In this document: piece by piece, positions 3,677 to 23,894 of the stretch | How positions within the stretch are numbered: the stretch's first letter is position 1 | Layout of the letters: the number at the start of each line of letters is the position of its first letter | Assembly (NCBI GenBank): GCA_965230945.1 | Contig: OZ246397.1 | Span: 539,925 to 603,924, forward strand | Reading direction: 5' to 3' | Length of the DNA: 64,000 nt | From: an uncultured Gammaproteobacteria bacterium | Lineage (GTDB): Bacteria; Patescibacteriota; Microgenomatia; PFEM01; JAPLYW01 | Translations under genes and position numbers: made by a program | Notes under the pieces: model-generated | The model's input: only the letters and a program-made list of their open reading frames with translations | What the model was told of the DNA's origin: nothing | Databases searched by the model: none

Positions 3677-3729
3677 TAGTTTTAGTTAAACTTTGCCTGT
3701 GGGGGCATGGCTTTAAGCTAGGAGGAAGA

Positions 3730-3849: not shown

Positions 3850-3987
3850 GTTTGGTGGCGAGGATTCGTTCTAATTGCGGATTATTATCCTCCTATCAAA
3901 CTCAACCTAAATTTTCTTGCCCTTTTTTTTCAAGAAGGTCGCCTAACCAGCGGCTTTTTTGTTGGCTTTCTATGTTAGAATAAGGCG

Positions 3988-4788: not shown

Positions 4789-5219
4789 AAGCTTATTTAA
4801 TTTTATTACCAGTTTTTTTTCTAGCTCTTTTACAGGGGTCCTTTTTAGGCTTTAATTTGGTTCTTTTGCTGGTTTTGTTTTATGTAGTTTTAAAGCAGAA
4901 TAGACAGAGTTTATGGGTAGCTTTTTGGTCTGGCTTAATTTTGGATTTGGCCAAAGGTCATTACTTAGGGCTTTCTGCCTTGATCTTTTTGTTTTTTAGT
5001 TTCTTGTTGATTTTATATTTCCGTCGCTTTCAGGCAACTAATTGGCTTTTTTTGGTAATTTTTGTGGCTCTTTTTTCTGGTGCTTATTCTCTTTTGGTTT
5101 ATCGCTTTTTTGATTGGAAAGAAGTTTTGTTTTTAATTATTTTGGCTCTTTTAGTACGCTTCATCTTAAGATTTTTCTCTATAGAATTGGCAACTAAACA
5201 GATAAGATTAAGGAATTAA
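4785..5219 (+). CDS. mreD: Rod shape-determining protein MreD
   Basis: 144 aa polytopic membrane protein; start overlaps the mreC stop (ATGA); precedes PBP2. Confidence 0.7.
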   Translation: MKAYLILLPVFFLALLQGSFLGFNLVLLLVLFYVVLKQNRQSLWVAFWSGLILDLAKGHYLGLSALIFLFFSFLLILYFRRFQATNWLFLVIFVALFSGAYSLLVYRFFDWKEVLFLIILALLVRFILRFFSIELATKQIRLRN

Positions 5220-6854: not shown

Positions 6855-7725
6855 AAAGAAATATTGGTTAGGTTTTAGTGCCTTTGCGGGTATTGGTCCT
6901 AAGAAGTTCTTTCTTCTTAGAGATTATTTTGGCTCTGCTAAAAAAGCTTGGCTGGCTTCTTCTTTTGAGTTATTAAAGGCTGGCTTAGGTCAAAATCTGC
7001 TGACGAGTTTTGTTGAATTTAGAAAAAAACTAGATTTAGATTCGTATTTTCTTCGTCTGCGTGAAAACGGGATAGAGTGCCAAACACTAGAAGATAAAAA
7101 TTATCCAGAAAACTTAAAAAATATTGATAATCCGCCCTTTCTGTTATTTGTGAAAGGAAATTTAAAGACCAATGATAAATGGGCGATAGCTGTTGTTGGC
7201 TCAAGAAGGATGTCTAATTATGGAGAGTTGGTTACTAAAAAATTAGTTAAGGATTTGGTCGGTTTTAATTTAACCATTGTTTCTGGTCTAGCGCGGGGTA
7301 TTGATACCATGGCTCATAAAACGGCTTTAAGATTTAAAGGAAGAACGATTGCCGTTTTGCCTTGTGGTTTAGATATGGTTTATCCGCCGGAAAACAAAAA
7401 CTTGGTTAAGCAAATTATTGATAAGGGAGGAGCCGTGGTTTCTGAATATCCACCTGGTTTTCGAGTTTCAAGAGGTAATTTCCCAGCCCGCAATCGCATT
7501 GTTTCCGGACTGTCTTTAGGGGCTTTAATTATTGAAGGAGCAGAAAGGTCAGGTTCTTTAATTACCGCTCGTTTGGCAGGTGAGCAAGGCAGGGAAGTTT
7601 TTGCCGTTCCCGGTCAAGTTACTTCCAAAAACTCCTTTACGCCTTCTTTGCTTATTAAGATGGGGGCTAAGTTGGTTTGGGATGTTAATGATATACTGGA
7701 AGAATTAAATCTTAAAAAAAGATAA
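6844..7725 (+). CDS. dprA: DNA processing protein DprA (Smf)
   Basis: Rossmann-like DprA core (VVGSRRMSNYG, SGLARGIDTMAH, LPCGLDMVYPPEN, GSLITAR). Confidence 0.85.
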   Translation: MKDEKKYWLGFSAFAGIGPKKFFLLRDYFGSAKKAWLASSFELLKAGLGQNLLTSFVEFRKKLDLDSYFLRLRENGIECQTLEDKNYPENLKNIDNPPFLLFVKGNLKTNDKWAIAVVGSRRMSNYGELVTKKLVKDLVGFNLTIVSGLARGIDTMAHKTALRFKGRTIAVLPCGLDMVYPPENKNLVKQIIDKGGAVVSEYPPGFRVSRGNFPARNRIVSGLSLGALIIEGAERSGSLITARLAGEQGREVFAVPGQVTSKNSFTPSLLIKMGAKLVWDVNDILEELNLKKR

Positions 7726-7751
7726 GAAATGTTTTATTATTTTTATTAAAG

Positions 7752-9740
7752 ATGAAAAGTTTAATAATAGTTGAGTCGCCTACTAAATCGAAAACCCTAT
7801 CTTCCTTTCTGGGAAAGGATTACAAAGTTATTTCGACCATGGGCCATATCAGGGATTTGCCAAAAGAGAAACTTGGAATAGAGATTGTTAAGAAAGATAA
7901 TAAAAGCTATGATTTCTTGCCCCAATATACTCTTTTAGATAAGAAAAAAGAGACGATTAAAAAATTAAAACAAGAAACAGGTAAGGCTAAAAAAGTCTTT
8001 TTGGCTAGTGATTCGGATCGTGAAGGAGAATCAATTGCTTATCATGTGGCCGCCATTTGTTCTAAGAAAAAGGAAAAAGATCCTAAGTTCCTAAGAATTA
8101 CCTTTCATGAGATCACTAAATCCGCTATTCAAAAAGCCTTAGCCAATCCGGGGAAAATTAATCTTCAGCTGGTTGATGCTCAACAGGCGAGAAGGCTCCT
8201 TGATAGGCTGGTCGGTTACAGACTTTCACCTCTTTTATGGCGCAAGATAAGAAGAGGTTTATCGGCCGGGAGGGTGCAGTCAGTGACCGTGCGTTTGATT
8301 GTTGAAAGAGAAAGGGAAAGAGAAAAGTTTATCCCAGAAGAGTATTGGGATATATTAGCTTATCTTCGTAAGCATATTGGTGGTCAAAAAGAAGGGGCAT
8401 CTACTTTTTACGCTAAGCTATTAAAAAAGAATAACAAGCCTTTTAAAGTTGAAAAAGAGGTACAGGCAGAAGAGGTTGTTAAGGACTTGCAAAAGGCTAA
8501 TTATGAGGTAGGCGATGTTGAAAGAAAAGAGGTTTTTCAAAATCCACCACCTCCTTTTACGACTTCTACCTTACAACAGATTGCCTCTCGTCGTTTAGCT
8601 TTTTCAGGGAAAAGAACGATGCGCGCCGCCCAATCGTTGTATGAAAAAGGTCTTATTACTTATCATCGAACCGATTCTTTTAGTCTTTCTTTACAGGCAG
8701 TAGGAGAGATAAGAAATTATATAGAAAAAGAAAAAGGGAAAAATTATCTTCCCGAAAAGCCAAGAATTTACAAGACAAAGTCTAAGGTCGCCCAAGAAGC
8801 TCATGAGGCCATCAGACAGACGAATGTTAATCGTCAAATTGAGGAAAAGAAAATAGGGAGAGATGAACAAAGGCTTTATAAATTAATTTGGCAGAGAACA
8901 GTCGCTTCGCAAATGAAATCAGCTATTTGGGATCAGGCAAAAATTAACATTCAGGCGATCAGTCAAAAAGATCTTTATGGTCTTTTAGTTGAAGGCAAGG
9001 TGATGAAATTTGATGGTTGGTTTTCTCTTTATGAATTCAAAGATAAGGAAGAAGAACTCCCTGATCTTAAAAAGGGTGATGATTTAGATTTAATTGAAAT
9101 TAAGAGCGAGCAGAAATTTACCCAGCCACCGGCAAGATATACAGAGGCAAGTTTAACTAAGGCCTTAGAGGAAAGGGGGATTGGCAGGCCTTCAACCTAT
9201 GTTCCCATTATTTCTACCATTCAAACAAGGCAGTATGTCGAGAAAGAAGAAGGTAAATTTAAACCAACACCATTGGGTGAAGTGGTTAATGACTTTCTAA
9301 TTGAATATTTCCCCCAAACCTTTGATTATCAATTTACGGCCAAAATGGAAGATGAACTTGATGATATTGCTAATGGTAAAAGAGAATGGATTTCGGTGAT
9401 GAATGATTTTTACAAACCTTTTGAAGAAAAACTGGAGGCTGTGACAGAGGTAGCTGAAAGAGTTCAAGTGCCTACAGAAGTAACAGGGGAAGATTGCCCT
9501 GAATGTAAAAAAGGCCAGTTGGTTATAAGAGTTGGTCGCTTTGGAAAGTTTATATCTTGTTCTAGGTTTCCTGATTGTAAATATACCGCTCCTTTTGTGC
9601 AAACAGTAGAAGGGATTAAATGCCCTAAGTGTGGTGGAGAAGTGGTTGTCAAGAAGACTAAAAAGGGTAAACAGTTTTACGGTTGTTCTAATTATCCAAA
9701 ATGTAATTGGGCTTCCTGGAAAAAACCAAAAACAGCTTGA
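7752..9740 (+). CDS. topA: DNA topoisomerase I with C-terminal zinc ribbons
   Basis: TOPRIM N-terminus (IIVESPTK), catalytic Tyr region (YHRTDS), three C4 Zn ribbons at the C-terminus; TGA stop. Confidence 0.9.
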   Translation: MKSLIIVESPTKSKTLSSFLGKDYKVISTMGHIRDLPKEKLGIEIVKKDNKSYDFLPQYTLLDKKKETIKKLKQETGKAKKVFLASDSDREGESIAYHVAAICSKKKEKDPKFLRITFHEITKSAIQKALANPGKINLQLVDAQQARRLLDRLVGYRLSPLLWRKIRRGLSAGRVQSVTVRLIVEREREREKFIPEEYWDILAYLRKHIGGQKEGASTFYAKLLKKNNKPFKVEKEVQAEEVVKDLQKANYEVGDVERKEVFQNPPPPFTTSTLQQIASRRLAFSGKRTMRAAQSLYEKGLITYHRTDSFSLSLQAVGEIRNYIEKEKGKNYLPEKPRIYKTKSKVAQEAHEAIRQTNVNRQIEEKKIGRDEQRLYKLIWQRTVASQMKSAIWDQAKINIQAISQKDLYGLLVEGKVMKFDGWFSLYEFKDKEEELPDLKKGDDLDLIEIKSEQKFTQPPARYTEASLTKALEERGIGRPSTYVPIISTIQTRQYVEKEEGKFKPTPLGEVVNDFLIEYFPQTFDYQFTAKMEDELDDIANGKREWISVMNDFYKPFEEKLEAVTEVAERVQVPTEVTGEDCPECKKGQLVIRVGRFGKFISCSRFPDCKYTAPFVQTVEGIKCPKCGGEVVVKKTKKGKQFYGCSNYPKCNWASWKKPKTA

Positions 9741-13102: not shown

Positions 13103-15094
13103 TTAAGGTATTATGTCATATTCTGACCTCGGAAACAAAAAGAGGTCGCTTAAACTTCTTAAGTTAAGTAGTTTAACTAGAAATCTGTCGATACTCAAAC
13201 AGAAACCTCCATGTGGCCTTGGATTTTGAAACGCGTTCAAATAGAATTGATATTTCTTGTGTTTTAATCCTGTTCCTTTTATGCCCTTCAGAAGTTTTTC
13301 GTAATCAGTTTCACGAATAGCCCCCGATGCTATTTCCCAACCTTTATAAATAACATCGAAGCTTAATGTTTTATCCTCCCTATCATGCTTTACATAAAAC
13401 TTTTTTACAGAGCTGGGATATTTTATTATTGCGAACAAATCAGTTTTGTACTTATCTTTGACAATCTTACCAAGCATTTCCTCAAGATCATATCCAAAAT
13501 CTATCCCGTAAGCGACTTTCCCACTTGTGCCTTTGCTATTTAGAAGGCTAAGGGCATCTTCGTAGGTAATTGTTTTTATGGTCTTATTAACTACTTGAGA
13601 TTTTGATATTTCCTTATTTTCATATAGTTTTTTTGTAATCACATTCAATAGAGTTCCCAATAAAGCAATCAGTTGATTTAAATTTTCAACATTAGCCATT
13701 TCTATATCTAAGCCATATGCTTCGGATAAATGCCTAGGAGTTGGGTTTAGTTCTGCTCTCCAAAAAGGACCTAGCTCAAAAAGTTTGTCTATGCCAGAAA
13801 GTATTAAGATCTGTTTATATAATTGGTTTGATTGCCTTAAAAGCATTTTTCTTCCGTACCAATTTACTGTAAAAATTTCCTCGTCTGGATTGTCTCGTAC
13901 GGGGTCAGTTGACACTGCAGTTATTGTGGGAGTATGAATTTCAACAAAACCGAGATATAAAAGTGTCTTTCGAGTAATAAAATAGGCATCACTTTTAAGT
14001 TTAATATTTGGGATTTTGGATTTATAAATTTCGCTATTGATACGAAAGTTTTCGCGTCTGGCATTTTCTTTTAAACTATAGATCATAGCATCCACAGCTT
14101 TTGTTACAGATGTTGAGATAATATCTTTTGCTATAGAGATACTATTTTGCCTTAATTTCTTATTGTATTGTGAATATTCATTTATTGATTTTAGATCATA
14201 AATTTCGTAAAGATTTTTGACTAAAAGAGTATTTTGCGGTGTCCCTAAATCGTATATGAGACAGTATTTGATAGTGCTCAAAAAATCTAGTTGTTCTTTT
14301 TTGAATACATTCGGTGTGGCGAAAAAGATGATGATAGGTTTTACTTTCAAGTTTTTGATGGTATTTAGTCGAACTGCCTTCTTGGCTATTTTATCCTTGA
14401 CTAGTTTTTTTGCTTTATTAATAGTTCTATTTGCTATAACTAGATTTTTATACCCTTTTTCGTTGAGGACTTTACATAACAAACTCCCTGTCGAGCCAGC
14501 ACCAACAATTAGAATGTATGCATCTTGGGGAATCGATCTTTTAATCATCATATCTACGGCTGTTCTTTCCGCAGAGACATTTCCTTTACCAATGTCTGTT
14601 GCATTTCTAACAGCATTTGAGACCTTTCTCGCATTGTTAAAGATTGTTTTTAAAACGATTCCGGCCGTTTTATCATCCGAGGCAATACTTATCGCTTGAC
14701 GTACTTGACCCGTAACCTGATTATCTCCTAAAGTTACACTTTTAAGTCCGCAGGCGGTTTCAAATAAATGCTCAATTACCTTTTTGCCAGAATATTGACA
14801 GATATCGGATATCTTGAAGGAGTTTGGTTTTTGAGATTGCTTCTTCCATAAATTCGTTATTCCGTCCTTATTATCTTCCGCAGCCACATAGTAGATTTCC
14901 ACACAATTGCATTTACTTAGAATTACGCATTCATCCAATCGATATTCATTCTGGAGTTCTTTCGCAAAAGACCGGTGATTTTTAATTAAGTAGGTTTGTA
15001 AAGATTGAAGGTCTCCTGTACCCATTAATGCAGAAAGACAGTGAATCTTTTCTAGTATGTTTTTTGTAATTTTATTTTGGAGCACTAGTGGCAA
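13103..15094 (-). CDS. Fusion protein: glutamyl-tRNA-reductase (HemA)-like catalytic plus NADPH domain (about aa 1-330) joined to an Asp/Asn-tRNA-synthetase-type class IIb catalytic core (about aa 370-663). No anticodon-binding domain.
   Basis: N-terminal half aligns to GluTR by eye: ILSKCNCVEIY (TCNRTE active-site Cys, codon 14909-14911), LKSVTLGDNQVTGQVRQA, ARKVSNAVRNATDIGKGNVS, ILIVGAGSTGSLLCKVLNEKGYKNLVIANRT. C-terminal half carries class IIb aaRS motifs: QSNQLYKQ, FWRAELNPTPRHLSEAYGLDIEMA (motif 2), PHGGFCLSIDRF...LFLFPR (motif 3). TTG start at 15094, first ATG at codon 24. Confidence 0.8.
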   Translation of the reverse strand: MPLVLQNKITKNILEKIHCLSALMGTGDLQSLQTYLIKNHRSFAKELQNEYRLDECVILSKCNCVEIYYVAAEDNKDGITNLWKKQSQKPNSFKISDICQYSGKKVIEHLFETACGLKSVTLGDNQVTGQVRQAISIASDDKTAGIVLKTIFNNARKVSNAVRNATDIGKGNVSAERTAVDMMIKRSIPQDAYILIVGAGSTGSLLCKVLNEKGYKNLVIANRTINKAKKLVKDKIAKKAVRLNTIKNLKVKPIIIFFATPNVFKKEQLDFLSTIKYCLIYDLGTPQNTLLVKNLYEIYDLKSINEYSQYNKKLRQNSISIAKDIISTSVTKAVDAMIYSLKENARRENFRINSEIYKSKIPNIKLKSDAYFITRKTLLYLGFVEIHTPTITAVSTDPVRDNPDEEIFTVNWYGRKMLLRQSNQLYKQILILSGIDKLFELGPFWRAELNPTPRHLSEAYGLDIEMANVENLNQLIALLGTLLNVITKKLYENKEISKSQVVNKTIKTITYEDALSLLNSKGTSGKVAYGIDFGYDLEEMLGKIVKDKYKTDLFAIIKYPSSVKKFYVKHDREDKTLSFDVIYKGWEIASGAIRETDYEKLLKGIKGTGLKHKKYQFYLNAFQNPRPHGGFCLSIDRFLVKLLNLRSLSDLFLFPRSEYDIIP

Positions 15095-15118
15095 TATAGC
15101 AAAAAAACAGAGCTAAAA

Positions 15119-15144
15119 CAATTCAGGCTTCTTGAGGAAGTTTT
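15119..15144. repeat. 26-nt near-exact direct repeat (copy A: aATTCAGGCTTCTTGAGGAAGTTTT), 25 nt upstream of the fusion-gene start
   Basis: 25/26 identity with 16691-16716, which lies inside the rsmA N-terminal coding region. The minus-strand reading of copy A encodes NFLKKPEL followed by a stop. Confidence 0.7.
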
Positions 15145-15431
15145 AGATTTTGTGTATTTTATAGTATTTTGGTAAAATTTCCCTTATGAGTAAAAAGAAA
15201 GCTTTGAAAGAACGACCCCTTACTTAAGGAATTCAGAAAATATTTTGTTTATGTAAATAATTTGAGAAATAAATTGGAATTTGTGAAGGATCGACAAAAA
15301 AAGAGAGGGAGTAACCTTCGGACAAAACCTTAGGTGTGCCCTCTCATCGTGATAATAATATCATACTCCTTTTTGAGAATTTGTCAAGGTTTTTTCCTAT
15401 TTGAGCGTTAGCGAAAACAAGGTTTCCTTAT

Positions 15432-15462
15432 TTGACATTTATATCTTTGATGTTCTAAAAAT
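15432..15462 (+). promoter_or_regulatory. sigma70-like promoter candidate TTGACA-N18-TAAAAT facing the structured element
   Basis: TTGACA at 15432-15437 and an A/T-rich -10 at 15456-15462; the 11-mer TATTTGACATT also occurs at 16963-16973. Confidence 0.3.
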
Positions 15463-15476
15463 AGGCTCATATCTTT

Positions 15477-15581
15477 AAGGTGCGGAGGTAGAATACCCAA
15501 GGTTTGAATAGCTTTCAACCTTTAAGGTTGAAATGTTGTAACATCCTGCAACCAGTTTGATCGAAAGGACTGTAGCACCTT
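15477..15581. ncRNA. structured RNA element of unknown class in the 738-nt region between rsmA and the fusion/aspS operon
   Basis: Closing helix AAGGTGC(15477-15483)/GCACCTT(15575-15581) around a perfect 9-bp hairpin TTTCAACCT-tta-AGGTTGAAA (15513-15533). Confidence 0.3.
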
Positions 15582-15832
15582 CGAACAAGCAATTACATGA
15601 GGTAGGGAAGAAAGAGGCCTTAATACAATTTGTGATTGATAAAATCTATAAAAGAGCAAAAACTGAATTGATTACTTTAGAAACCTTCCGATCGCTTTTG
15701 ATTATGATTTCTATTGTTTGTGTTATAGCATATTTTGGAAGGAAAAACAAATTTTTAATCTAATTGCCTAACAGTTCTAAGTTGTGCTCCTTCGTAACTG
15801 GATGTTTCTGGGACATGTTTTTAGGTATCAAC

Positions 15833-16831
15833 TTAGGACACCTGGAAGGCATACCTGATGTTTTTCCAATCAGCCTGAATTCTAGTTCTATGAATTTTTT
15901 CTAATTTTGCTTGTTGTTTTTGGAGGTTTTTCTCTGCACCAATTGTTAGTTGCTTTTTGTGATTTGCTACTTCAACTAAAAAATATTTAAATAGCCCGAG
16001 CCATTGGTTAAACTTAATTTCTGTAGGGGTTGCTGATTGGCTAAAGTTTAAATCTTTGGCCAGCTTTTTAAATTGTTCTCTAGTAAAGATTTTTCTTAAA
16101 GCTTCTTTAAGTGTTGGTTGCCACTGGCTAAAGGTATAGGCGAGAAAGTCTTTATAGAGTTGACTATTTTTGGTATCCACCACTGACTCTTTTCTCTTTT
16201 GGAGCCGAAGTAAGACGGTATTGACGCCTGGGGGTGGTTGAAAATCTCCCCGTTTAAAATTATGGATAACTTTTGGTTCAAACCATGGTTTGATTAATAA
16301 AACAGACAAAGTTTCTTTACTAGTATAAGGGGAACCAGTAAATTTTTTGGCGGCTTCTTCCTGAACAATAAGATAGGTATCCTCAGGTGAATTTTCTGTA
16401 TTGACAAGTTTTTTTATTATGTCAGCCGTTATGTTGAACGGAATATTGGAAAAAACCTTATATTCTGTTTGGGGGAGTTTGTATTTTAGAAAATCTCCCT
16501 GATGAATTTTTATTTTAGGATTTTGGCCAAAACGATGTTTTAATTTTAAGAATAAGTCTTGGTCTTTTTCAATTGCGATTACTTTTTTACAGCGAAAGGC
16601 GAGTTGTTCGGTAATAATACCCCGACCTGGACCTACTTCATAGACTATATCTTTAGGGTCAATTGAAGATTTTTCCAAAAGATGTTGTACTAATTCAGGC
16701 TTCTTAAGGAAGTTTTGTGAATAAAGGATGCTTTTTCTTTCTGGATATTCTTTTTCAGACATACGCTTTTGCTTATGATATTTCATTGACTTAGGCATAA
16801 TGGCAGTTCCTAAGTATACCATTTTACTCAT
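15833..16831 (-). CDS. rsmA: rRNA adenine N6-dimethyltransferase (KsgA/RsmA family) with a C-terminal extension of about 60 aa
   Basis: YSQNFL, VYEVGPGRGIITEQL (SAM GxGxG), FSNIPFNIT; 332 aa against about 270 typical. Confidence 0.75.
   Translation of the reverse strand: MSKMVYLGTAIMPKSMKYHKQKRMSEKEYPERKSILYSQNFLKKPELVQHLLEKSSIDPKDIVYEVGPGRGIITEQLAFRCKKVIAIEKDQDLFLKLKHRFGQNPKIKIHQGDFLKYKLPQTEYKVFSNIPFNITADIIKKLVNTENSPEDTYLIVQEEAAKKFTGSPYTSKETLSVLLIKPWFEPKVIHNFKRGDFQPPPGVNTVLLRLQKRKESVVDTKNSQLYKDFLAYTFSQWQPTLKEALRKIFTREQFKKLAKDLNFSQSATPTEIKFNQWLGLFKYFLVEVANHKKQLTIGAEKNLQKQQAKLEKIHRTRIQADWKNIRYAFQVS
16691..16716. repeat. 26-nt repeat copy B (inside rsmA codons for NFLKKPEL)
   Basis: AATTCAGGCTTCTTAAGGAAGTTTT; 25/26 identity with 15119-15144. 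Confidence 0.7.
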
Positions 16832-16967
16832 TTTTTAGCGATAATTGATAATATTTATTTACTTGACAGAAAGGCTTGGAGAAGGGAAGCCTACAGATTC
16901 GATATTAACTATTTCTATGAGGGTTTATACAGCTATTGATTTTTTATTAAACAACAGTCTTCTCTAT

Positions 16968-17006
16968 TTGACATTACTGGATTTGGTGGTTTAAACTTGC
17001 TATAAT
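16968..17006 (+). promoter_or_regulatory. promoter candidate: TTGACA (16968-16973) plus extended -10 TGcTATAAT (16998-17006)
   Basis: Consensus hexamers 28 nt upstream of the 17034 start; a TGCTATA(A/C)T extended -10 recurs at 23901, 38731 and 20846. Confidence 0.35.
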
Positions 17007-17033
17007 TAGTCAAATTAATAATCTGCTTAGAAA

Positions 17034-18128
17034 ATGTCAGAATCAAAGATGCCAAAAGAAAAGGTAGAAATTGAATATTCAGGAACGAATCCTCTTATTA
17101 ATTCAGGAAAAGAGGCAATTGAAAATTACAAAAAAATAGCTGAGGAGAATAAGAAGGATGTTTCTGGAGAAGCTTACAAAAAGGTTCTCAGACAAACGGC
17201 AAGGATTCTCGCAACAACATTACCTCTTCCTCTTCTTACTGCTTGTGCCGCTTGTGAGAAACCACCGGTCGTTGAGGAACAGCAGCAGGAAGAAGGGAAA
17301 GGACAGGAGACAGTTCCTTCTGAAACAGCTGAAACAGAAAAGGAGACTGTTCAGGAAGAAACTCCTCCGGTGGTTGAAGAGACTCCTGAAAAAATTGAAT
17401 GGGAAGGGGTCACCATTTCCCCAGTAGAAGGCTTAAAGTTTGATAAGGGAGATTTCTATTTTATGGAAGGAAATGAATATGGCGGGATACCTGGAGAAAA
17501 AGCAGGAGTTTTGGTTAAAGATGGCTTAGAGGTTAATGGGAAAATGGAAAATGCCATTGGTTTAGATCCAATGGTAATTGAGTTTAAAGAAAAAGAGATA
17601 TTTAAGGAAACCAAAGAGCGTTTATTACCTATTCTTATTGACCTAACCAAGTCTAAGGACGTAAAACTACAGGAATTAAATGCAGCAGGAGCAGAAATTG
17701 GTAGAAAAGTTTTAGCTTTCAATGTTGCTATTGGGACGGAGTTTTTGTCACCTCTTTCTGGAAGTTGGGGTATGTTTAAACCCTTTCCGAATGTTGAAGA
17801 TAAATGCTTTTTTATTAATTGGGATATTGGAGTGGAAGGACAATTGGGTGGGTGGGATATCTATTTTAGAGATGCGGAAGTTTTGGCCAAAATGGAAAAA
17901 GAGGTATCAATTCTTAACCCTAAAGATACTAATAGACAGACTCTTATGGAAACAGAAGTCAAATTAGGCGACCCCTTAGGAAAAATTACAAGTAACACTC
18001 CCTTAGAAGAATTTTCCAAAAGTGGCTGGGGTGATTATCAAATTGTAGCTTTTCTTAAAAATAAAGATAGAATTATGGAAGTTGGTAGCGGAGCTGATGC
18101 TTGCAAGGTTTTTATTTTTAACCAATAA
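17034..18128 (+). CDS. hypothetical protein with a Glu/Pro/Thr-rich low-complexity linker
   Basis: 364 aa with an internal hydrophobic segment ending LLTACAAC (lipobox-like); the C-terminal globular domain has no recognisable motif. Confidence 0.45.
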   Translation: MSESKMPKEKVEIEYSGTNPLINSGKEAIENYKKIAEENKKDVSGEAYKKVLRQTARILATTLPLPLLTACAACEKPPVVEEQQQEEGKGQETVPSETAETEKETVQEETPPVVEETPEKIEWEGVTISPVEGLKFDKGDFYFMEGNEYGGIPGEKAGVLVKDGLEVNGKMENAIGLDPMVIEFKEKEIFKETKERLLPILIDLTKSKDVKLQELNAAGAEIGRKVLAFNVAIGTEFLSPLSGSWGMFKPFPNVEDKCFFINWDIGVEGQLGGWDIYFRDAEVLAKMEKEVSILNPKDTNRQTLMETEVKLGDPLGKITSNTPLEEFSKSGWGDYQIVAFLKNKDRIMEVGSGADACKVFIFNQ

Positions 18129-18189
18129 ATTTTCTCAATTACTCATATTGACAAATTTTGATTTGAAGAGATAAACTAAATTAGGGATA

Positions 18190-18819
18190 ATGTCTAAAAA
18201 AATTAAAGTTTTTCTGTCCTTAATATCCTTAGTTTCTGTCGTTGCAACTGTGGGGATATTTTTTGATTTTGGTTTTAAAAAATTATTCTTAAAATCAAAA
18301 ATTTTTCCGTCCGAAAATAAAAAAACGGTTATTTCAAATATAACCCCAACCCCTTCTCCCGTCTTGGAATTTGTAGAATTACTTCATCTCCCTGAAGGTG
18401 CTTTAGATTTAACTTTACCTGTTGAAAGAAGTTATTTCGAAGCCATGAAAGAAAATACTCCAAAATATCCTGATGCTATTTCATTTAATCTTAATGAAAA
18501 TGAGGAAGTTAAAGCTATTTTTGATGGAAAAGTTGTGAGTGTTCAATATGTTGATAAGGAAACTATTGGGGATCAACCTAATGATTTTCTTACAATTTGG
18601 ATTGAAAGCAGAGATGAAATGCTAGTAGCTAGTTATCTTGTTGCAGGAGAATTTTTATTAAAAGAAAATGAGGAAATAAGATCCGGAGAAAGCTTAGCTA
18701 GAATTGGGAAAGGGATTGTTCCCTTTAGCAATGATGCTAATTTTAGTTTAACTATTATGAAATTGGAAGATGATGAATATAAAACAATAGCTTTAGATAA
18801 AGGAATGTTTTTACGATGA
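18190..18819 (+). CDS. hypothetical secreted protein
   Basis: N-terminal signal/TM; stop overlaps the start of the next gene (ATGA). Confidence 0.45.
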   Translation: MSKKIKVFLSLISLVSVVATVGIFFDFGFKKLFLKSKIFPSENKKTVISNITPTPSPVLEFVELLHLPEGALDLTLPVERSYFEAMKENTPKYPDAISFNLNENEEVKAIFDGKVVSVQYVDKETIGDQPNDFLTIWIESRDEMLVASYLVAGEFLLKENEEIRSGESLARIGKGIVPFSNDANFSLTIMKLEDDEYKTIALDKGMFLR

Positions 18820-20708
18820 GAAAAATGAAATTAATAAAAGTTAATTTTTTATTTAGGGTTTTATTAATAATTCTTTCTTTCTTTGCCTTCCTTTTTATCT
18901 TTAGGTCTTCAGCTTTAGCAGCTTTGTGGCCTTGCGTAGATTGCTACGATTGCAGCAGATGTGCTGCTTCATGTGGTAATGCTGGGACTGGGTCTTGGGT
19001 TTATGAGGGTTGTGGCAGGAATCGCTGCCCTCCAACTCAAACTTATCGATGGAGAAACATTCTTACCTGTTACTGTGGTAGATATCGTATTTGTAGAGTT
19101 GAAGATGGGTGTGTGAATAGTCCGAGCTGCGTGCCAGCTTGTTCTAATACATCTGACTGTGGTCATACATGTGCAGCTAATGGTTGTGATGCTTGTGCCT
19201 GTGATGGTGATTCTCGAAGTAGTTCCTATAACTGGACTTCTTTAGGTTGTTCAAGAGATTGTAGAACCTGTTATTGCGGTAGAATTAGATGTAGCTGTAC
19301 TGGATGGTCAAATAGATCCTGTGGAGGAGGAAGTTGTTCTTCTACCAAAATGCTCCAAACAAGGACGTGTACGCCTTCCGGTTGTAGCTCTACTTCAAGA
19401 TGTGTGAGTACTTCTGCTTGTCAGTGTAGCTGCTCTGGATGGTCAAATGGATCCTGTGGAGGAGGAAGTTGTTCATCATTGCAGAGACTTCAGACTCGTA
19501 CTTGTACGCCTTCTGGCTGTAGTTCTACTTCTAGGTGTGTTGGCGACTCTAGTTGTTGTCAGTGTACTAGTTGGGTAAATGGTGCTTGTGGTCCAGATGG
19601 GAGTTGTGCGGTAGGACAACGCAGGCAGACAAGAACTTGTAGCCCTTCTGGTTGCAGTTCTACTTCTCGGTGTGTGATTGATGCTAGTTGTAATGCGTCA
19701 TGCACTATTAATTTATCCCCCATATCTCTGACTTTAAGTACAGGAAGATCTGATCTAATCACTGCTGAGGTAAGTGTGGAGAATGCAACCGTGGATAGAG
19801 TAGATTTTTCCTCTAATAATCCTAGTGTAGCTTCCGTTGATCCTTCTAGTGACTCAGGTTCTCCTTATCGTACTCAAGCAACAGGTGTAGATGTTGGAGA
19901 AGCGGAGGTAAGTGCTCAGGCTATTTTGAATCCCTCTGGCTCATGTAATACGAGTACACCTACCAGTATAACGGTAGAATTCGGTGGCTGGTTCCAAACC
20001 CAAGGTGGTACCATTCATGCAGAAGGTAATCTGTCTAATAAAATTCCTTCCACAGCCAGCGATAGGAACTTATCTATGGCTGTAGGTGGTTTTCCAGGAG
20101 TTATCTCTCATCAATCAGCAATAGAGGCTAATTTTGGTGAAGGTTATCCTTCCAATGATGATCCTAATCATTGGCTAGCCAAATCTTCCTACCAAGGCAA
20201 GAACTTTGGTTCTTGGGGGTTCTTTGTTAAGAAATACAGTACCAGGATGACAGAGAACTTTGATGGCACCCTTCCAAACAAAGACGGTATTTATTATTCC
20301 GGATCAGGCAAAACACTACAGGGAAACTGGAAATTGCCTGCTAACCGCTGGTTGATAATTATGGTTGAAGGCAATATTAACATTCCTGTAGACATTACTG
20401 TTCCAGACACCAGTTTTTTAGCTTTGGTAAGCGCCAATGATATTATCTTTGAAAGCTCTGTTTCCCAAGCCCAAGGCATGTTTATAGCTGATGGAAGTAT
20501 AGACACCAATACCGGTTCAACCCAGTTTCAAGCTGAAGGCTTCTTTGCTGCTTCCCAGTTTATCCTAAGCAGGGACCTAGAAGATAACAACCCAACCACA
20601 CCTGCAGAATTATTTACTTTCAGACCAGACTTTCTTATCAATTCCTATAAAGATGCTGATAATAATCTTTGGTGGTTTGATTTTAAATGGGAGGAAATAG
20701 CCCCATAA
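18816..20708 (+). CDS. Secreted cysteine-rich surface protein with three tandem thrombospondin-type-1-like repeats, followed by a bacterial Ig-like region and a C-terminal beta-rich domain
   Basis: Signal peptide; repeats C(S/T)GWSNxSCGGGSCSSxxxLQTRTCTPSGCSSTSRCV, which resemble the TSR consensus W-x-x-W-x-x-C-x-x-x-CGxG-x-x-x-R-x-R-x-C; more than 70 Cys in the N-terminal 290 aa. Confidence 0.6.
   Translation: MRKMKLIKVNFLFRVLLIILSFFAFLFIFRSSALAALWPCVDCYDCSRCAASCGNAGTGSWVYEGCGRNRCPPTQTYRWRNILTCYCGRYRICRVEDGCVNSPSCVPACSNTSDCGHTCAANGCDACACDGDSRSSSYNWTSLGCSRDCRTCYCGRIRCSCTGWSNRSCGGGSCSSTKMLQTRTCTPSGCSSTSRCVSTSACQCSCSGWSNGSCGGGSCSSLQRLQTRTCTPSGCSSTSRCVGDSSCCQCTSWVNGACGPDGSCAVGQRRQTRTCSPSGCSSTSRCVIDASCNASCTINLSPISLTLSTGRSDLITAEVSVENATVDRVDFSSNNPSVASVDPSSDSGSPYRTQATGVDVGEAEVSAQAILNPSGSCNTSTPTSITVEFGGWFQTQGGTIHAEGNLSNKIPSTASDRNLSMAVGGFPGVISHQSAIEANFGEGYPSNDDPNHWLAKSSYQGKNFGSWGFFVKKYSTRMTENFDGTLPNKDGIYYSGSGKTLQGNWKLPANRWLIIMVEGNINIPVDITVPDTSFLALVSANDIIFESSVSQAQGMFIADGSIDTNTGSTQFQAEGFFAASQFILSRDLEDNNPTTPAELFTFRPDFLINSYKDADNNLWWFDFKWEEIAP
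19290..19695 (+). repeat. three diverged tandem repeat units of about 135 nt inside the CDS, encoding the TSP1-like modules
   Basis: Units start at about 19290, 19425 and 19563, e.g. tggatggtcaaatagatcctgtggaggaggaagttgttc against tggatggtcaaatggatcctgtggaggaggaagttgttc. Confidence 0.7.
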
Positions 20709-20845
20709 AAAACCATCTGCGGTAAAGAATCTAAGTTCTAGAAGAGGGCAAAGCTAATCAACTAGTTTTTTCTAAAAGATTCTTGCTCTTTTTATAATAT
20801 TTTCTCCTAAAAGTTAAATCTATAGTTGAGTCTTTAATATTTTTC

Positions 20846-20906
20846 TGCTAAAATATACTCATTACACACATCGGTTGTTGTTTTTCTGATAAGCTTCTGA
20901 CCGATG
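20846..20906 (+). promoter_or_regulatory. rpsB promoter (TGcTAAAATATACT) and 5' UTR hairpin CATCGGT(20869-20875)/ACCGATG(20900-20906)
   Basis: Extended -10-like TGn plus an AT-rich hexamer; 7-bp stem with a 24-nt loop ending 25 nt before the rpsB ATG. Confidence 0.3.
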
Positions 20907-20931
20907 GCGGAATAAGAAAAACATTGTTTTT

Positions 20932-21648
20932 ATGTCTAAATTGAAGATTGAACTGAAAGATTTGCTTGATGCGGGTGCTCATTTTGGGCATCAGTCGCAT
21001 CGTTGGCATCCTCAGATGGCTCCTTATCTTTATGGAGCTCGTGATGGTATTCATATCTTTGATTTAGTTAAGACTAAAGAAGGATTAGAAAGAGCCATTG
21101 AATTTGTAAAGAAGACTGTTTCTGAAGGTGGCAAGATTATTTTTGTAGGTACCAAACGTCAAGCTCAAGCAATTATTAAAGAAGAAGCCTTAAAGGCTAA
21201 AATGCCTTTTATCACTGAGAGATGGATGGGTGGTATCATTACTAATTGGGATCATATCAAGTTGTCTGTGGAAAAATTAAAAGACTTAAAAGAAAAGAAA
21301 GAAGCAGGAGAGTTTGAAAAGTACACTAAAAAAGAAAATATTTTAATTGATCGAGAAGTTGCTAGGTTGGAGAGATTTTTCGGCGGCTTGGTTGATTTAG
21401 AAGAATTACCAGCAGCTATCTTTGTTATTGATGTTAAGAAAGAAAAAGCAGCTGTTAAGGAGGCTTCTATGAAAGAGATTCCGGTAATAGCCGTGGTTGA
21501 TTCTAATTCTGACCCTAATTTAATAGATTATGTAATTCCGGCTAATGATGATGCCATTGGTTCAATTAAGCTTATTTCTGAGATGATTGGTCTAGCTGCT
21601 CAAGAGGGTAGAGAAATTTTTGATAAGAAAAAAGTTGATAAAAAATAA
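20932..21648 (+). CDS. rpsB: 30S ribosomal protein S2
   Basis: LLDAGAHFGHQSHRWHPQMAPY..., 238 aa. Confidence 0.9.
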   Translation: MSKLKIELKDLLDAGAHFGHQSHRWHPQMAPYLYGARDGIHIFDLVKTKEGLERAIEFVKKTVSEGGKIIFVGTKRQAQAIIKEEALKAKMPFITERWMGGIITNWDHIKLSVEKLKDLKEKKEAGEFEKYTKKENILIDREVARLERFFGGLVDLEELPAAIFVIDVKKEKAAVKEASMKEIPVIAVVDSNSDPNLIDYVIPANDDAIGSIKLISEMIGLAAQEGREIFDKKKVDKK

Positions 21649-21650
21649 TT

Positions 21651-22133
21651 ATGAAGATTACCTTAGAACAAGTTAAAAAATTAAGAGCTAAAACCAGAGT
21701 TGGTATTATGGATTGCCGTCAAGCTTTAGAAGAATGTGGGGGTGATTTTATTAAGGCCGAGAAATGGCTTAAGGAAAAAGGTTTTAAAGCAAGTAAGAAA
21801 AGAGAAAGTAGAGAAACTTCTCAAGGTATGATTGAAGTTTACAGTCATAGTGATGGCAAGATTGTTGGTATGGTTGAGCTTTTATGTGAGACTGATTTTG
21901 TTTGCCGCAACAAAGAGTTTAAAAAACTGGCTCATGAATTGGCTATGCAGGTAGTTGCCATGAATCCTAAGGATAAAAAAGAACTCTTAAAACAGCCTTG
22001 GATTAGAGATGAATCGCAGACAATTGAAGAGCTGCTTAATAGTTTGATTGCCAAAACCGGAGAAAATGTTAAAATTGGGAGAATAGCTAGGTTTGAACTT
22101 GGGGAAGAACAAAAGAGGGAAAAAGCAAAATAA
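21651..22133 (+). CDS. tsf: Elongation factor Ts (short, 160 aa)
   Basis: N-terminal UBA-like LRAKTRVGIMDCRQALEE; lies between rpsB and frr. Confidence 0.8.
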   Translation: MKITLEQVKKLRAKTRVGIMDCRQALEECGGDFIKAEKWLKEKGFKASKKRESRETSQGMIEVYSHSDGKIVGMVELLCETDFVCRNKEFKKLAHELAMQVVAMNPKDKKELLKQPWIRDESQTIEELLNSLIAKTGENVKIGRIARFELGEEQKREKAK

Positions 22134-22138
22134 TCTTT

Positions 22139-22690
22139 ATGGAATTGACAGAAGTTGGCGATAAAATGGACAGAGTCATTGAGTTTTTTGTCGATGACCT
22201 GCGTTCCCTGCGGGCCGGTCGGGCCAGTCCCTCTTTGATTGAAAAGATTGTGGTTGAAGCTTATGATTCTAAGATGCCTCTAGTGGAATTGGCCACCATT
22301 GTTTCTTCAGATGCCAATCAGCTGACAATTACCCCCTTTGATCAAACAATTATTAGGAATATTGAAAGAGCTTTAAGTATGGATAGAAATTTAGGTTTGA
22401 TTGTTAGGCCTGAAGAGAGTGCTATTAGGGTTGAATTTCCGCCTTTAACAGAAGAAAGAAGGCAAGAATTTAGCAAGCTTTTAAGGCAAAAGGTTGAATC
22501 AGCCAGGGTTATGATCAGACAGATTCGTCATGAGAAGATTACCGAGATAAAAAAAGCTTTTGAAAACAAAGAGATTGACGAAAACAGCAAGTTTAATCAA
22601 GAAAAAGAACTGCAAAAATTGACCGATGAGTTTAATAAGAAAATTGAAGAAATTGGTCAGCAAAAAGAGAAAGAATTGCTTTCAATTTAG
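22139..22690 (+). CDS. frr: Ribosome recycling factor
   Basis: 183 aa RRF signature (DDLRSLRAGRASPSLIEKIVVEAY...). Confidence 0.85.
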   Translation: MELTEVGDKMDRVIEFFVDDLRSLRAGRASPSLIEKIVVEAYDSKMPLVELATIVSSDANQLTITPFDQTIIRNIERALSMDRNLGLIVRPEESAIRVEFPPLTEERRQEFSKLLRQKVESARVMIRQIRHEKITEIKKAFENKEIDENSKFNQEKELQKLTDEFNKKIEEIGQQKEKELLSI

Positions 22691-22718
22691 TCTACTTTTT
22701 ATTAGTTATTAATTTTGT

Positions 22719-23894
22719 ATGTGGTTAACCTTAATCACTTTTTTAATCGTTTTTTCCGTTATTATCTTAGTCCATGAGCTAGGTCATTTTTGGATAGCCA
22801 GAAAAGCCGGTATTAAGGTAGAGGAGTTTGGTTTTGGTTTTCCCCCTCGGCTTACGGGAAAAAAGATTGGTAAAACCTTTTTTTCCTTAAACTGGTTGCC
22901 TTTTGGAGGTTTTGTCAGGCTTTTTGGTGAGGAACTAGTCAAGGATTACAAAAAGAAAGGTAAGGATTACAAAGAGGCTTTTTGGTATAAATCCAAGCGG
23001 GCGAGAATAGCCGTTTTAGTGGCCGGTGTTTTAGCTAATTTTCTTTTGGCTATTGTTTGTTTTTCTATAGTTTATTCTATTTCCGGTATTCCCACTCAAA
23101 CTGATAGGGTAAATATAGTGGCTGTTTTACCTGATTCCCCAGCTGCAGAACTGGATTTAAAGGAAAATGATATTGTTTTGAGTGTTGATGAAGTGAAAGT
23201 TAATGACTTAAATCACTTTGTTGATTTAATTGATCAAAGAAAAGGTAAAGAAGTTAAGCTTTTGCTGGAAAGAAAAAAGGACAACCCTTGTTTAGAAGGA
23301 ATTTTAGATGATGAACAGAAATTTAGTTGTCAAGATAGCAACTTGCTTTTAGGAATAGAACCTCGAGAAAATCCGCCTGAGGGAGAGGGCTCTTTAGGGG
23401 TTCTTGTTTCTAATGTTGAAGTTAAAAAATATCCTCTGTGGCAGATGCCTTTTAGGGGAACAGTTGAAGGTTTTAAGGTAGCCTTTGCTTTGGTGGGCTT
23501 AATTGTTTCTGGTTTAGGCAAGATGTTGCTTAATTTAGTTGCCCACGGTCAGGTGCCTACAGAAGTGGCTGGACCAGTAGGCATTATGCAAATGACTGGC
23601 ATGGTAGCCAAGTCGGGGATAATAGCTGTCTTACAATTTACAGGTTTGATTTCTGTTAACTTGGCTATTATAAATGTCTTGCCTTTCCCGGCTTTAGATG
23701 GGGGAAGATTGGTTTTTATTCTTTATGAAGCGGTGACTAAAAAAAGACCTAAACCTTCTTTTGAATCATGGACTAATGCCCTTGGTATGGCCTTTTTAAT
23801 AGCCCTTTTGGTTTTGGTAACCATCAACGATATAAAAAGACTAATGGTGACCACTAATATTCTACAAAAGATAAGGGCGATTTTGCCGTTTTAG
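22719..23894 (+). CDS. rseP: Site-2 protease RseP (M50 family) with a PDZ domain
   Basis: HELGHF zinc motif in TM1, PDZ in the middle, LDGG near the C-terminus. Confidence 0.8.
   Translation: MWLTLITFLIVFSVIILVHELGHFWIARKAGIKVEEFGFGFPPRLTGKKIGKTFFSLNWLPFGGFVRLFGEELVKDYKKKGKDYKEAFWYKSKRARIAVLVAGVLANFLLAIVCFSIVYSISGIPTQTDRVNIVAVLPDSPAAELDLKENDIVLSVDEVKVNDLNHFVDLIDQRKGKEVKLLLERKKDNPCLEGILDDEQKFSCQDSNLLLGIEPRENPPEGEGSLGVLVSNVEVKKYPLWQMPFRGTVEGFKVAFALVGLIVSGLGKMLLNLVAHGQVPTEVAGPVGIMQMTGMVAKSGIIAVLQFTGLISVNLAIINVLPFPALDGGRLVFILYEAVTKKRPKPSFESWTNALGMAFLIALLVLVTINDIKRLMVTTNILQKIRAILPF

Follow-up and report, generated by a model that had tools for sequence, protein, structure and literature searches.

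Gene triad encoding a Cys-rich secreted protein

Three adjacent genes in the window (the whole 64-kb stretch of DNA analyzed here) end in a Cys-rich protein, p3. The locus raises the question of what such a protein does and whether its repeats are thrombospondin type 1 repeats (TSRs). The first-pass annotation had described three co-directional genes for secreted or surface products, the last two overlapping by ATGA. This was borne out, as all three open reading frames (ORFs) lie on the plus strand, ATGA is the overlap of the p2 stop codon with the p3 start codon, and every product is secreted or membrane anchored.

16968..16997, plus strand: promoter-like site TTGACA-18-TAAACT, upstream of p1
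17034..18128, plus strand: p1, ORF of 364 aa
18148-18177: promoter-like site upstream of p2, hexamer pair identical to the p1 site
18190..18819, plus strand: p2, ORF of 209 aa
18816..20708, plus strand: p3 (full gene), ORF of 630 aa

The two promoter-like sites were the best matches of the scan (10/12), the scan total was not above that of shuffled sequences (12 versus 10.3), and comparison of the p1-upstream and p2-upstream intergenic regions revealed no likeness beyond the hexamer pair. Downstream of the triad in the window lie rpsB-tsf-frr. NCBI and Logan records carry the 630-aa p3 product; on a JGI contig of identical sequence p3 is called as 344 aa only, leaving the Cys-rich half uncalled. 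Since p3 has 12 full-length homologs (44 to 72% identity) and many partial ones, and the p1-p2-p3 triad was found again at independent loci, these features are not due to chance. The most regular context of a family gene, a large bitopic protein and an N-anchored protein of ∼160 to 220 aa followed by the family gene, is present in the window and at L001, L003, L004, L009, L010, L011, L016, and L018.

From its ORF and hydropathy, p1 appears to be a bitopic membrane protein with a cytoplasmic N terminus of ∼55 aa, a weakly hydrophobic membrane segment (residues ∼56 to 74, ...LPLPLLTACAAC), an E/P/T-rich linker, and an extracellular domain of ∼230 aa. No match was identified in Pfam, NCBIfam, or the PDB. 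Orthologs were found at L004 (59% identity), L003 (L003_417; E value, 3e−5), and L001 (L001_392; E value, 8e−5), and positional analogs of the same topology lie upstream of family genes at L009, L010, L011, L016, and L018.

The p2 protein carries an N-terminal membrane anchor followed by a degenerate, noncatalytic LytM/M23-like domain. Its match to Pfam Peptidase_M23 (residues 96 to 174) scored 23 bits, below the gathering cutoff of 28.7, and the orthologs from L004 and L001 gave a subthreshold match as well. Because its single His (H66) falls outside residues 96 to 174, p2 lacks the HxxxD/HxH zinc ligands and can be at most a degenerate LytM protein. This layout, an anchor followed by an M23-like domain lacking the metal-binding His, recalls SpoIIQ and other degenerate LytM proteins, a likeness that stays below threshold in both Pfam (23 versus 28.7 bits) and a profile search of PDB sequences (SpoIIQ, E value of 0.34; an M23 peptidase, E value of 1.1). 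SpoIIQ partners with SpoIIIAH, and no counterpart of SpoIIIAH was found for p2. The p2 profile search retrieved four orthologs only; orthologs include those at L004 (51% identity), L001 (L001_189; E value, 5e−14), and L015 (L015_186; E value, 2e−11), the last within a pilus gene cluster.

Cys-rich modules of p3 and the thrombospondin question

18816..18920, plus strand: p3 signal peptide, residues 1-35, predicted cleavage after ALA
18921..19289, plus strand: N-terminal Cys-rich region, residues 36-158
19290..19691, plus strand: three tandem 8-Cys modules, residues 159-202, 204-247, and 248-292

The signal peptide proposed for p3 was supported by a Sec-type N terminus, as read from the sequence (MRKMKLIK, a 21-aa hydrophobic stretch, and SSALA before the next A). 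Hydropathy placed the strongest hydrophobic segment from about residue 11, and a regular-expression search of the N terminus identified no class III (prepilin) G/FTLxE motif. More than 70 Cys had been claimed; the count is 48, of which 47 fall within residues 40 to 296 (18% of that stretch). Within the N-terminal Cys-rich region, residues ∼53 to 99 form a degenerate module copy (SWVYEGCGRNRC...YRWR...C), and residues ∼109 to 158 form a recurrent module of a second type (CSNTSDCGHTCAANGCDACACDGDSRSSSYNWTSLGCSRDCRTCYCG). The DCGHTC-type module also occurs in P0002, P0003, P0004, P0011, P0012, and P0016, and a variant of it (PDCGHTCLNHGT...) in P0001, P0005 to P0007, P0010, P0020, P0030, P0034, and P0036.

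The three tandem modules of the first-pass annotation were located at nucleotides 19290-19421, 19425-19556, and 19557-19691, repeating with a DNA period of 135 nt at 73 to 80% identity. All share QTRTC(T/S)PSGCSSTSRCV. The module consensus is CxCxxWxxxxCGxGxCxxxQxxQTRxCxPxGCxxxxxCxxDxxC, and the alignment has nine invariant columns (eight Cys and W6), with T24 and R25 nearly invariant. AlphaFold2 (AF2) modeled the modules with three short strands (pLDDT, 85.6). Module number and type vary between close p3 homologs.

Assignment of these repeats to the TSR family was not supported, as no HMM, profile-profile, or fold search gave support that reached significance. Pfam TSP_1-type families produced no match at an E value of ≤10 to whole p3, to the three isolated modules, to the repeat-rich P0013, P0016, P0019, and P0020, or to the WSAWS-type repeats of P0027. 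A 36-sequence module profile gave 0 matches at an E value of ≤10 to PDB chains, a database from which a genuine TSR query, used as a positive control, retrieved 51 TSR-containing chains. Alignment of the module with eight genuine TSRs (TSP-1 and properdin) using hhalign returned a probability of 11.5% over 15 columns. The module resembles a TSR in being small, disulfide rich, three stranded in the AF2 model, and tandem in extracellular proteins, and its motifs follow a similar order (W ... CGxG ... (Q)xR-x-C-x-P). However, TSRs form three disulfides from six conserved Cys and pair a WxxW(xxW) ladder with RxR, whereas the p3 module has eight Cys and a single invariant Trp and is shorter (44 versus ∼55 aa).

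True homology with eukaryotic TSRs, which would make p3 a eukaryote-like adhesion or invasion factor, has some evidence in its favor. Besides the similar motif order (W, CGxG, Q-T-R-x-C-x-P), the module C16-C27 spacing of 11 equals the TSR C2-C3 spacing, hhalign on that stretch gave a P value of 0.0026 compared with 0.04 in reversed controls, three of seven weak Foldseek matches were TSRs, and variants exist with WxxW plus RYxYRYRYW (P0001 and P0016) or WSAWS...RTRTC (P0027). The WxxW motif is limited to some variants in proteins other than p3, and we regard this homology as very improbable. Of the two-part outcome that the first-pass annotation had named as counting against TSRs, one half was obtained: a TSR match was absent, but the 8-Cys module also fell into no other known Cys-rich family, and it belongs to no Pfam family. 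The Cys-rich protein p3 is not demonstrable as a thrombospondin-repeat protein.

Conserved C-terminal domain and terminal hexapeptide

19701..19976, plus strand: Ig-like domain (Big_2-type), residues ∼296-387
19977..20705, plus strand: conserved C-terminal domain, residues 388-630
20688..20705, plus strand: terminal hexapeptide W-E-E-I-A-P, proposed docking strand or signal

The picture of p3 as a modular secreted protein survived in its Ig-like and β-rich C-terminal domains, and was not supported for its TSR repeats. The Ig-like stretch following the repeats gave a Pfam Big_2 match of 22.2 bits against a gathering cutoff of 22.8 (residues 298 to 367), and precomputed PF02368 matches exist on the p3 homologs P0007, P0012, and P0023. 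The C-terminal domain, which had received only a passing mention as a β domain, is β rich in the structural model, which predicts a right-handed β-solenoid of the ice-binding protein/ComZ type. WFQTQGG marks its start, and PAELFTFRPDF lies close to the other end.

This domain is the conserved, family-defining part of p3 and points to type IV pili (T4P). It was identified in at least 1,418 clusters. Among 147 representatives, 141 have the domain ending ≤3 residues from the C terminus, and the extensions preceding it range from 0 to 1,159 aa (median, 311). Between p3 and its L001 homolog, identity is 45% in the N-terminal region, 78% in the Ig domain, and 71% in the C-terminal domain. Sequence comparison revealed no likeness of the domain to ComZ, to PilY1, or to any protein of solved structure, and the window copy had no Pfam match at an E value of ≤10. 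Weak matches to Pfam DUF7305 (PF23981) were identified within the solenoid region of 9 of 21 family members (E value of ≤1; best, 7.6e−6); window p3 had no such match, and P0027 matched at an E value of 0.2. DUF7305 is uncharacterized, with no mention in the literature searched.

Across 137 representatives, the terminal hexapeptide has the pattern W (80%) or F (15%), x, E (98%), V/L/I, A (77%), P (100%). In the monomer model the last nine residues of p3 are predicted to be disordered (pLDDT of <50). High conservation combined with disorder in the monomer would fit a strand that becomes ordered only when bound to another protein. A similar tail, WKEIAPF, is carried by PKD-type proteins lacking the solenoid, and small N-anchored β-rich proteins precede these as well.

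Pilus genes in relatives and in the window

Pilus genes adjoin family genes at approximately 5 of the 13 family loci with usable flanks, the five being independent of one another. The order at L010 is family gene, PilX-like, PilM (E value, 7e−65), PilN-like, and PilO. At L012, a family gene is followed by a pilin, two minor pilins, a PilX-like gene, a second family gene, PilM, PilN-like, and PilO-like; at L013, by a PilX-like and three pilin-like genes. L015 has PilD and eight N_methyl pilins, then the p2 homolog, the family gene, PilX-like, and PilM, and L016 has genes for 408-aa and 206-aa proteins, then the family gene, PilX-like, and PilM. The PilX-like neighbors are mutually homologous (E values, 1e−9 to 1e−31), and the PilX_N domain occurs in relatives only on this separate gene, not on p3. 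No adjacent pilus genes were found at L001, L003, L009, L011, L017, or L018, and the most regular neighbors of family genes are p1/p2-like membrane proteins, not pilins. TBLASTN searches of the 64-kb window with PilX-like, PilM/N/O, PilD, and pilin queries identified no pilus gene at an E value of <0.1; the pilus-tip reading of p3 therefore rests on its relatives.

A pilus-tip adhesin and competing explanations

The p3 protein belongs to a large unnamed family of ultrasmall (Patescibacteria) bacteria whose members are probably carried at the tip of T4P, with which these bacteria attach to other cells. On balance, and with modest confidence, we favor p3 as a non-pilin pilus-tip adhesin combining a PilY1-like role, a ComZ-like fold, docking by a C-terminal strand, and variable Cys-rich modules. 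An adhesin role in an episymbiont-type bacterium, as the first-pass annotation had suggested, is plausible. Host binding by Saccharibacteria requires T4P, and large Saccharibacteria PilX proteins lacking a PilD signal have been proposed as tip adhesins (PMC11623550).

Like PilC/PilY1, p3 is a large non-pilin with a Sec-type signal and no prepilin motif, its family combines a conserved C-terminal anchor with a variable N terminus, and in relatives the family gene lies beside minor pilin genes, especially PilX/PilK-like ones. Each also ends in a short conserved peptide, the element through which PilC/PilY1 perform β-strand addition; this mechanism was demonstrated there and has been proposed to extend to ComZ-like PilK homologs (PMC13533445). 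In contrast, the C-terminal domain of PilC/PilY1 is a seven-bladed β-propeller and that of p3 a predicted β-solenoid, p3 has neither a match to the Pfam PilY1/Neisseria_PilC domain nor other sequence likeness to it, and the p3 gene in the window is away from pilus genes. ComZ of Thermus thermophilus (PDB 6QVI), a competence-pilus protein with a proposed tip location, has the same fold as that modeled for the p3 solenoid, at ∼11% sequence identity. In ComZ the solenoid is inserted in a pilin-like (GspK-type) domain of one polypeptide, whereas the N-terminal part of p3 consists of the Sec signal, Cys-rich modules, and Big_2 with no GspK-type pilin domain, and the PilX-like pilin of relatives is a separate adjoining gene. 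ComZ lacks Cys-rich and Ig modules, and p3 has both.

In the proposed mechanism, p3 of this Patescibacteria-type bacterium would be a secreted accessory protein of T4P, itself no pilin and most likely a tip adhesin. Its tail may dock on a PilX-like minor pilin by β-strand addition in trans, modeled on the last ∼6 to 10 residues of PilC/PilY1 on PilK/PilX, and the family would represent a "split ComZ" in which one gene encodes the solenoid and donor strand and another the pilin part. Projecting from the pilus tip, the Ig-like domain and fast-varying N-terminal Cys-rich modules could then together serve either to bind a host cell or substrate or as a rigid stalk locked by disulfides. As co-conserved membrane partners, p1 and p2 may aid export, wall passage, or docking. 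Against the tip adhesin, the terminal Pro is no obvious strand end, and the ice-binding fold is also found in pilus-unrelated proteins.

A pilus-independent surface complex, in which p1 and p2 display p3 on the cell, would instead have the solenoid or tail bind p2 at its LytM-like domain or p1 at its ectodomain, as in a SpoIIQ scaffold. The Cys-rich modules would again be an adhesin or stalk, and proximity to pil genes would reflect operon neighborhood without physical coupling. The regular bitopic/N-anchored/family gene context, p2-p3 translational coupling through ATGA, the resemblance of p2 to SpoIIQ and degenerate LytM proteins, the window free of pilus genes, and the small N-anchored proteins preceding PKD-type WKEIAPF proteins all agree with it. 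However, most p1/p2-like partners are positional analogs only (the p2 profile found just four orthologs), family genes at L012 and L013 lack a p1/p2-like pair and have pilin genes around them, pilX-like and pilMNO genes directly adjoin the triad at L010, L015, and L016, and the ComZ fold match is left unexplained; we consider such a complex rather unlikely. A variant of the pilus reading with another ligand makes p3 a competence-pilus DNA receptor whose solenoid would itself capture extracellular DNA at the tip in the way reported for ComZ, scavenging nucleotides or DNA under reduced biosynthesis. As p3 has no sequence similarity to ComZ, the two Lys implicated there cannot be mapped onto it; DNA binding has no need of the hypervariable Cys-rich, Ig-containing N-terminal part, which has the look of a specificity module, and dprA lies ∼10 kb away in another cluster (PBP2-dprA-topA in the window; mreBCD-PBP2-dprA at L018), which leaves this role quite improbable. 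The modeled right-handed triangular β-solenoid with its flanking helix also resembles ice-binding proteins of the DUF3494 fold (3WP9 and 6BG8), and could suggest a functional antifreeze domain. Yet p3 has no sequence-level DUF3494 membership or cold-adaptation context, the window domain had no Pfam match, Ice_binding/DUF3494 included (E value of ≤10), that family was absent from those matched by the 21 members (E value of ≤1), antifreeze proteins have nothing corresponding to the conserved tail, pilus-operon context, or variable N-terminal modules, and ComZ uses the same fold for other purposes; an ice-binding function is scarcely credible.

Implications for host recognition in Patescibacteria

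For Patescibacteria, one of the central questions still open is how ultrasmall episymbionts recognize and hold their hosts. T4P are the sole appendage experimentally shown to be necessary, in Saccharibacteria, and candidates for the tip component that carries specificity have so far come from a single lineage only. The family is large and easy to recognize by its conserved anchor associated with pili, its C-terminal tag that hardly varies, and its hypervariable front end rich in Cys, and it would offer concrete host-specificity candidates across many uncultured lineages. The 44-aa 8-Cys module is itself a widespread extracellular building block without a Pfam family.

More tentatively, and with appreciable doubt, W-x-E-[VLI]-A-P could be a universal PilX-like docking strand that mounts interchangeable N-terminal payloads for host specificity in a Patescibacteria split ComZ. 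With such a strand, interchangeable, fast-evolving payloads, including the previously undescribed 8-Cys TSR-like module, could be mounted on the pilus tip. Given its presence on solenoid-less PKD-type proteins, the tail would then be a portable signal for targeting to the pilus tip (or the surface). Because the motif is simple to search for and the tail can be deleted or grafted, the idea is testable. If true, C-terminal β-strand addition, a principle of pilus tip assembly shown only recently, would apply to another fold and another phylum as well.

The p1-p2-p3 genes

Three ORFs occupy the plus strand at the positions proposed in the first-pass annotation, and the last two overlap by ATGA, as that annotation also reported.

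Genes of the triad in the window
p1: 17034..18128, + strand, ORF of 364 aa
p2: 18190..18819, + strand, ORF of 209 aa
p3: 18816..20708, + strand, ORF of 630 aa

The p3 product carries a Sec-type signal, read from the sequence as a basic n-region, a hydrophobic core of 21 residues, and ALA|A. Its Cys count had been put at more than 70, which proved too high; there are 48, of which 47 lie within residues 40 to 296. Searches of the three proteins against Pfam, NCBIfam, and PADLOC returned only a borderline Big_2 match, a sub-threshold M23 match, and a 13-bit Cas10 match on p1, the last treated as noise. Window positions 14674-23190 are 100% identical to a JGI contig in which the p3 call covers just 344 aa, with a separate 45-aa fragment, and misses the Cys-rich half (window 18816-19856, corresponding to L021 4143-5000). 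As the ORF is intact and the full 630-aa product is on record in NCBI and Logan, this truncation is a gene-calling artifact. Under-calling of Cys-rich N-termini may be systematic in the p3 family.

Pfam and PDB searches gave no interpretable match for p1, a bitopic protein of unassigned fold. p2 is a membrane-anchored LytM-like protein that is predicted to be catalytically dead: M23 matches to p2-type proteins are sub-threshold and occur in three orthologs, the matched region of p2 contains no His, and SpoIIQ ranks first among the PDB matches of p2 (E = 0.34). Profile iteration with p2 over all ORFs of all loci recovered four orthologs only, and the other small anchored proteins encountered are therefore regarded as positional analogs, with no claim of homology. 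As a guess, p1 and p2 may help with wall passage, export, or docking.

An identical promoter-like hexamer pair (TTGACA-18-TAAACT) lies upstream of p1 (16968-16997) and p2 (18148-18177). A repeated regulatory element common to the two upstream regions was rejected, as the hexamers alone coincide and their surroundings are otherwise unrelated. Elsewhere in the window, a 663-aa ORF at 13103-15094 on the minus strand fuses GlutR_N and Shikimate_DH to a class II tRNA-synt_2 core (precomputed Pfam, identical contig), an unusual arrangement in a genome of this kind. Bacterial EF-Ts is usually ∼280 aa; the protein encoded at 21651-22133 has only 160 aa, and the short form is also found in the related locus L001 (159 aa).

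Conserved C-terminal domain and tail

Identity between p3 and its homologs peaks in the C-terminal half. Against the L001 relative it reaches 71% over the last 242 aa and 78% in the Ig domain, compared with 45% in the Cys-rich part. An exhaustive search with residues 388 to 630 identified at least 1,418 representative clusters at E ≤ 1e−3 (559 at ≤ 1e−10). In 141 of 147 listed representatives the domain ends no more than 3 residues from the protein C-terminus, and the N-terminal extensions ahead of it range from 0 to 1,159 aa among these representatives. The final six residues are strongly conserved, following the logo W (80%)/F - x - E (98%) - V/L/I - A (77%) - P (100%). None of the family proteins found carried a name or Pfam label, and weak matches to the uncharacterized DUF7305 were present in 9 of 21 family members.

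The AF2 model of the C-terminal domain is confident (pLDDT 85.8; pTM 0.85) and forms a beta-solenoid, with the last nine residues disordered. No sequence-level link was found to ice-binding proteins or to ComZ, a proposed pilus-tip protein of Thermus thermophilus with the same solenoid fold; the likeness of the modeled domain to both is at the fold level only.

A very similar tail (...P-x-W-K-E-I-A/P-P-F) was observed in PKD/Ig-type proteins without the solenoid (P0020, P0030, P0034, P0036, and P0040; loci L019 and L020). P0030 is labeled Candidatus Nealsonbacteria. Small N-anchored beta-rich proteins precede P0020 and P0030, which lie 3.5 to 7 kb from pilB (L019 and L020) and pilC/pilin genes (L020). 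The terminal tail could be a targeting signal that is portable between proteins.

Cys-rich modules and their relationship to thrombospondin repeats

The three tandem units noticed in the first pass are real and span p3 residues 159-202, 204-247, and 248-292. At the DNA level they have a period of 135 nt and share 73 to 80% identity, which indicates a duplication old enough for divergence. From 52 instances taken from homologs, of which 36 were aligned, a consensus of ∼44 aa was derived (CxCxxWxxxxCGxGxCxxxQxxQTRxCxPxGCxxxxxCxxDxxC), in which eight Cys and one Trp are invariant and T-R and P nearly so. An apparent degenerate additional copy occupies p3 residues ∼53-99. A second Cys module of ∼50 aa, frequently sitting immediately before the 8-Cys modules, recurs in many homologs (window 18921-19289, DCGHTCxxxGCDACACDGD...SxDCxTCYCG; variant, PDCGHTCLNHGT...DCSQCTGYR). 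Pfam has no family for this second module, nor any over the 8-Cys module, even in carriers with up to five copies.

A single-protein search identified the 8-Cys module in more than 30 proteins, one of them from an Aenigmarchaeota MAG, alongside partner domains that include PKD/Ig, FN3, CARDB, dockerin, amidase, glycoside hydrolase, and pectate lyase domains. Such a spread over many architectures is a usual mark of portable extracellular modules that bind or act as spacers. A word-index search with a 46-column module alignment returned no match, probably through a limit of the tool with short queries rather than through rarity, given the single-protein result. Viral contigs contained zero instances of the module, and a phage receptor-binding origin thus gains no support.

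The units had been read as resembling thrombospondin type 1 repeats (TSRs), whose motif order they echo, possibly with one Trp-Arg pair. However, TSP_1-type Pfam scans (E ≤ 10) matched neither p3, the isolated modules, the repeat-rich relatives, nor P0027, the homolog with the most TSR-like wording (WSAWSASCG..RTRTC). A module profile retrieved no PDB chain at E ≤ 10, whereas a genuine TSP-1 TSR query against the same database retrieved 51 TSR-containing chains. With hhalign, eight real TSRs from that control search aligned to the module over 15 columns, the C...Q.R.C.P stretch, at a probability of 11.5%, compared with ∼1% for mixed reversed controls. The module lacks the HMM match, six Cys, and Trp ladder that define TSRs. 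True TSR homology is highly improbable in the face of the Pfam, PDB-profile, and hhalign results, and the module was treated as a new Cys-rich unit resembling the TSR but outside its family. TSR-like variants below Pfam TSP_1 were also seen in P0027 (residues ∼190-330, WSAWSASCGNATRTRTC), P0001 (∼150-200, SWTSW...QRYQYRYRYW), and P0016 (∼110-180, GSWGSW...QRRYRYW).

Gene neighborhoods of the family

Genes encoding the p3-type C-terminal domain (family genes) were surrounded by type IV pilus genes in five loci (L010, L012, L013, L015, and L016), and their PilX-like neighbors are mutually homologous. No pilus genes were found in the 64-kb window or near the family gene in L001, L003, L009, L011, L017, and L018.

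Arrangement of loci carrying family genes
L004: triad in the same order; p1 59% and p2 51% identical
L001: p1/p2 order swapped; rpsB-tsf-frr downstream, as in the window
L003: triad with different flanks
L009, L010, L011, L016, L018: large bitopic protein and N-anchored 160- to 220-aa protein; positional analogs only
L010: family gene, PilX-like (PilX_N, weak), PilM (E = 7e−65), PilN-like, PilO (E = 8e−8)
L012: Cys-rich family member, major pilin, two minor pilins, PilX-like, second family member, PilM, PilN-like, PilO-like
L013: family gene, PilX-like, three pilin-like genes
L015: PilD, eight N_methyl pilins, ..., true p2 homolog (E = 2e−11), family gene, PilX-like, PilM
L016: 408 aa, 206 aa, family gene, PilX-like, PilM

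A 23S_rRNA_IVP-family gene adjoins the family gene in L016 (10795-11187), where it separates the family gene from the PilX-like gene, and in L018 (11249-11632). In L009 (6921-10709) and L018 (14746-19601), the triad has an mreB-mreC-mreD-PBP2(-dprA) cluster nearby. Within window 1701-9740, a Pfam scan of 5220-9740 confirmed PBP2, DprA, and TopA; this vicinity looks like conserved synteny.

Relatives labeled Shapirobacteria, Gottesmanbacteria, and Patescibacteria suggest the lineage of the window. Family members also occur in MAGs labeled Bathyarchaeia or Gammaproteobacteria (L005, L007, L008, L009, and L013); these labels suggest that Patescibacteria contigs were mis-binned or named automatically. 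In L007 (2242-6735), one protein has 1,497 aa and 72 Cys, and an adjoining ORF reads by sequence like bacterial-type ribosomal protein L7/L12.

Possible role at the pilus tip

The last ∼6 to 10 residues of the type IVa pilus-tip adhesins PilC/PilY1 complete the beta-sheet of the minor pilins PilK/PilX in trans, licensing pilus assembly (2026, PMC13533445). The family has the PilC/PilY1 layout: its C-terminal anchor is conserved, its N-terminus varies, and in five loci a PilX/PilK-type minor pilin gene lies beside a family gene. In the competence type IVa pilus of T. thermophilus, a large insertion separates the beta-sheet of a PilK homolog from the donor C-terminal strand of the same protein (PMC13533445, citing the ComZ structural study); the family resembles both insertion and strand, but encoded apart as a secreted protein beside a PilX-like gene. 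The family tail could dock onto the PilX-like minor pilin as a donor strand, which would explain why six residues are nearly invariant across the family yet disordered in the monomer. A p3-type protein would then be located at the pilus tip, where the Cys-rich and Ig front end of p3 may act as an adhesin.

A serious, if unlikely, alternative is a pilus-independent surface complex in which p1 and p2 hold p3, as p1/p2-like genes are the most constant neighbors of family genes and the window is without pilus genes. A variant of the pilus reading, in which p3 is a ComZ-like receptor with DNA as its ligand, appears distinctly less probable. Apart from ComZ, no published connection between pili and DUF3494 or DUF7305 solenoids was found. 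Real ice binding by the C-terminal domain is scarcely credible, and the context gives it no support.

On balance, p3 is best read as a non-pilin adhesin associated with pili, whose anchor has a different fold and which carries a conserved terminal tag and a previously undescribed Cys-rich module; at the locus in the window, its connection to pili is indirect. An earlier paper mentions Cys-rich extracellular proteins of CPR bacteria in a general way (PMC4736985). Host binding by Saccharibacteria requires pili, and large PilX proteins that lack a PilD signal have been proposed as the tip adhesins (PMC11623550); a pilus-tip adhesin thus fits the phylum, although the folds of those proteins differ from that of p3. 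A location of p3 at the pilus tip would bear on how episymbionts choose their hosts.
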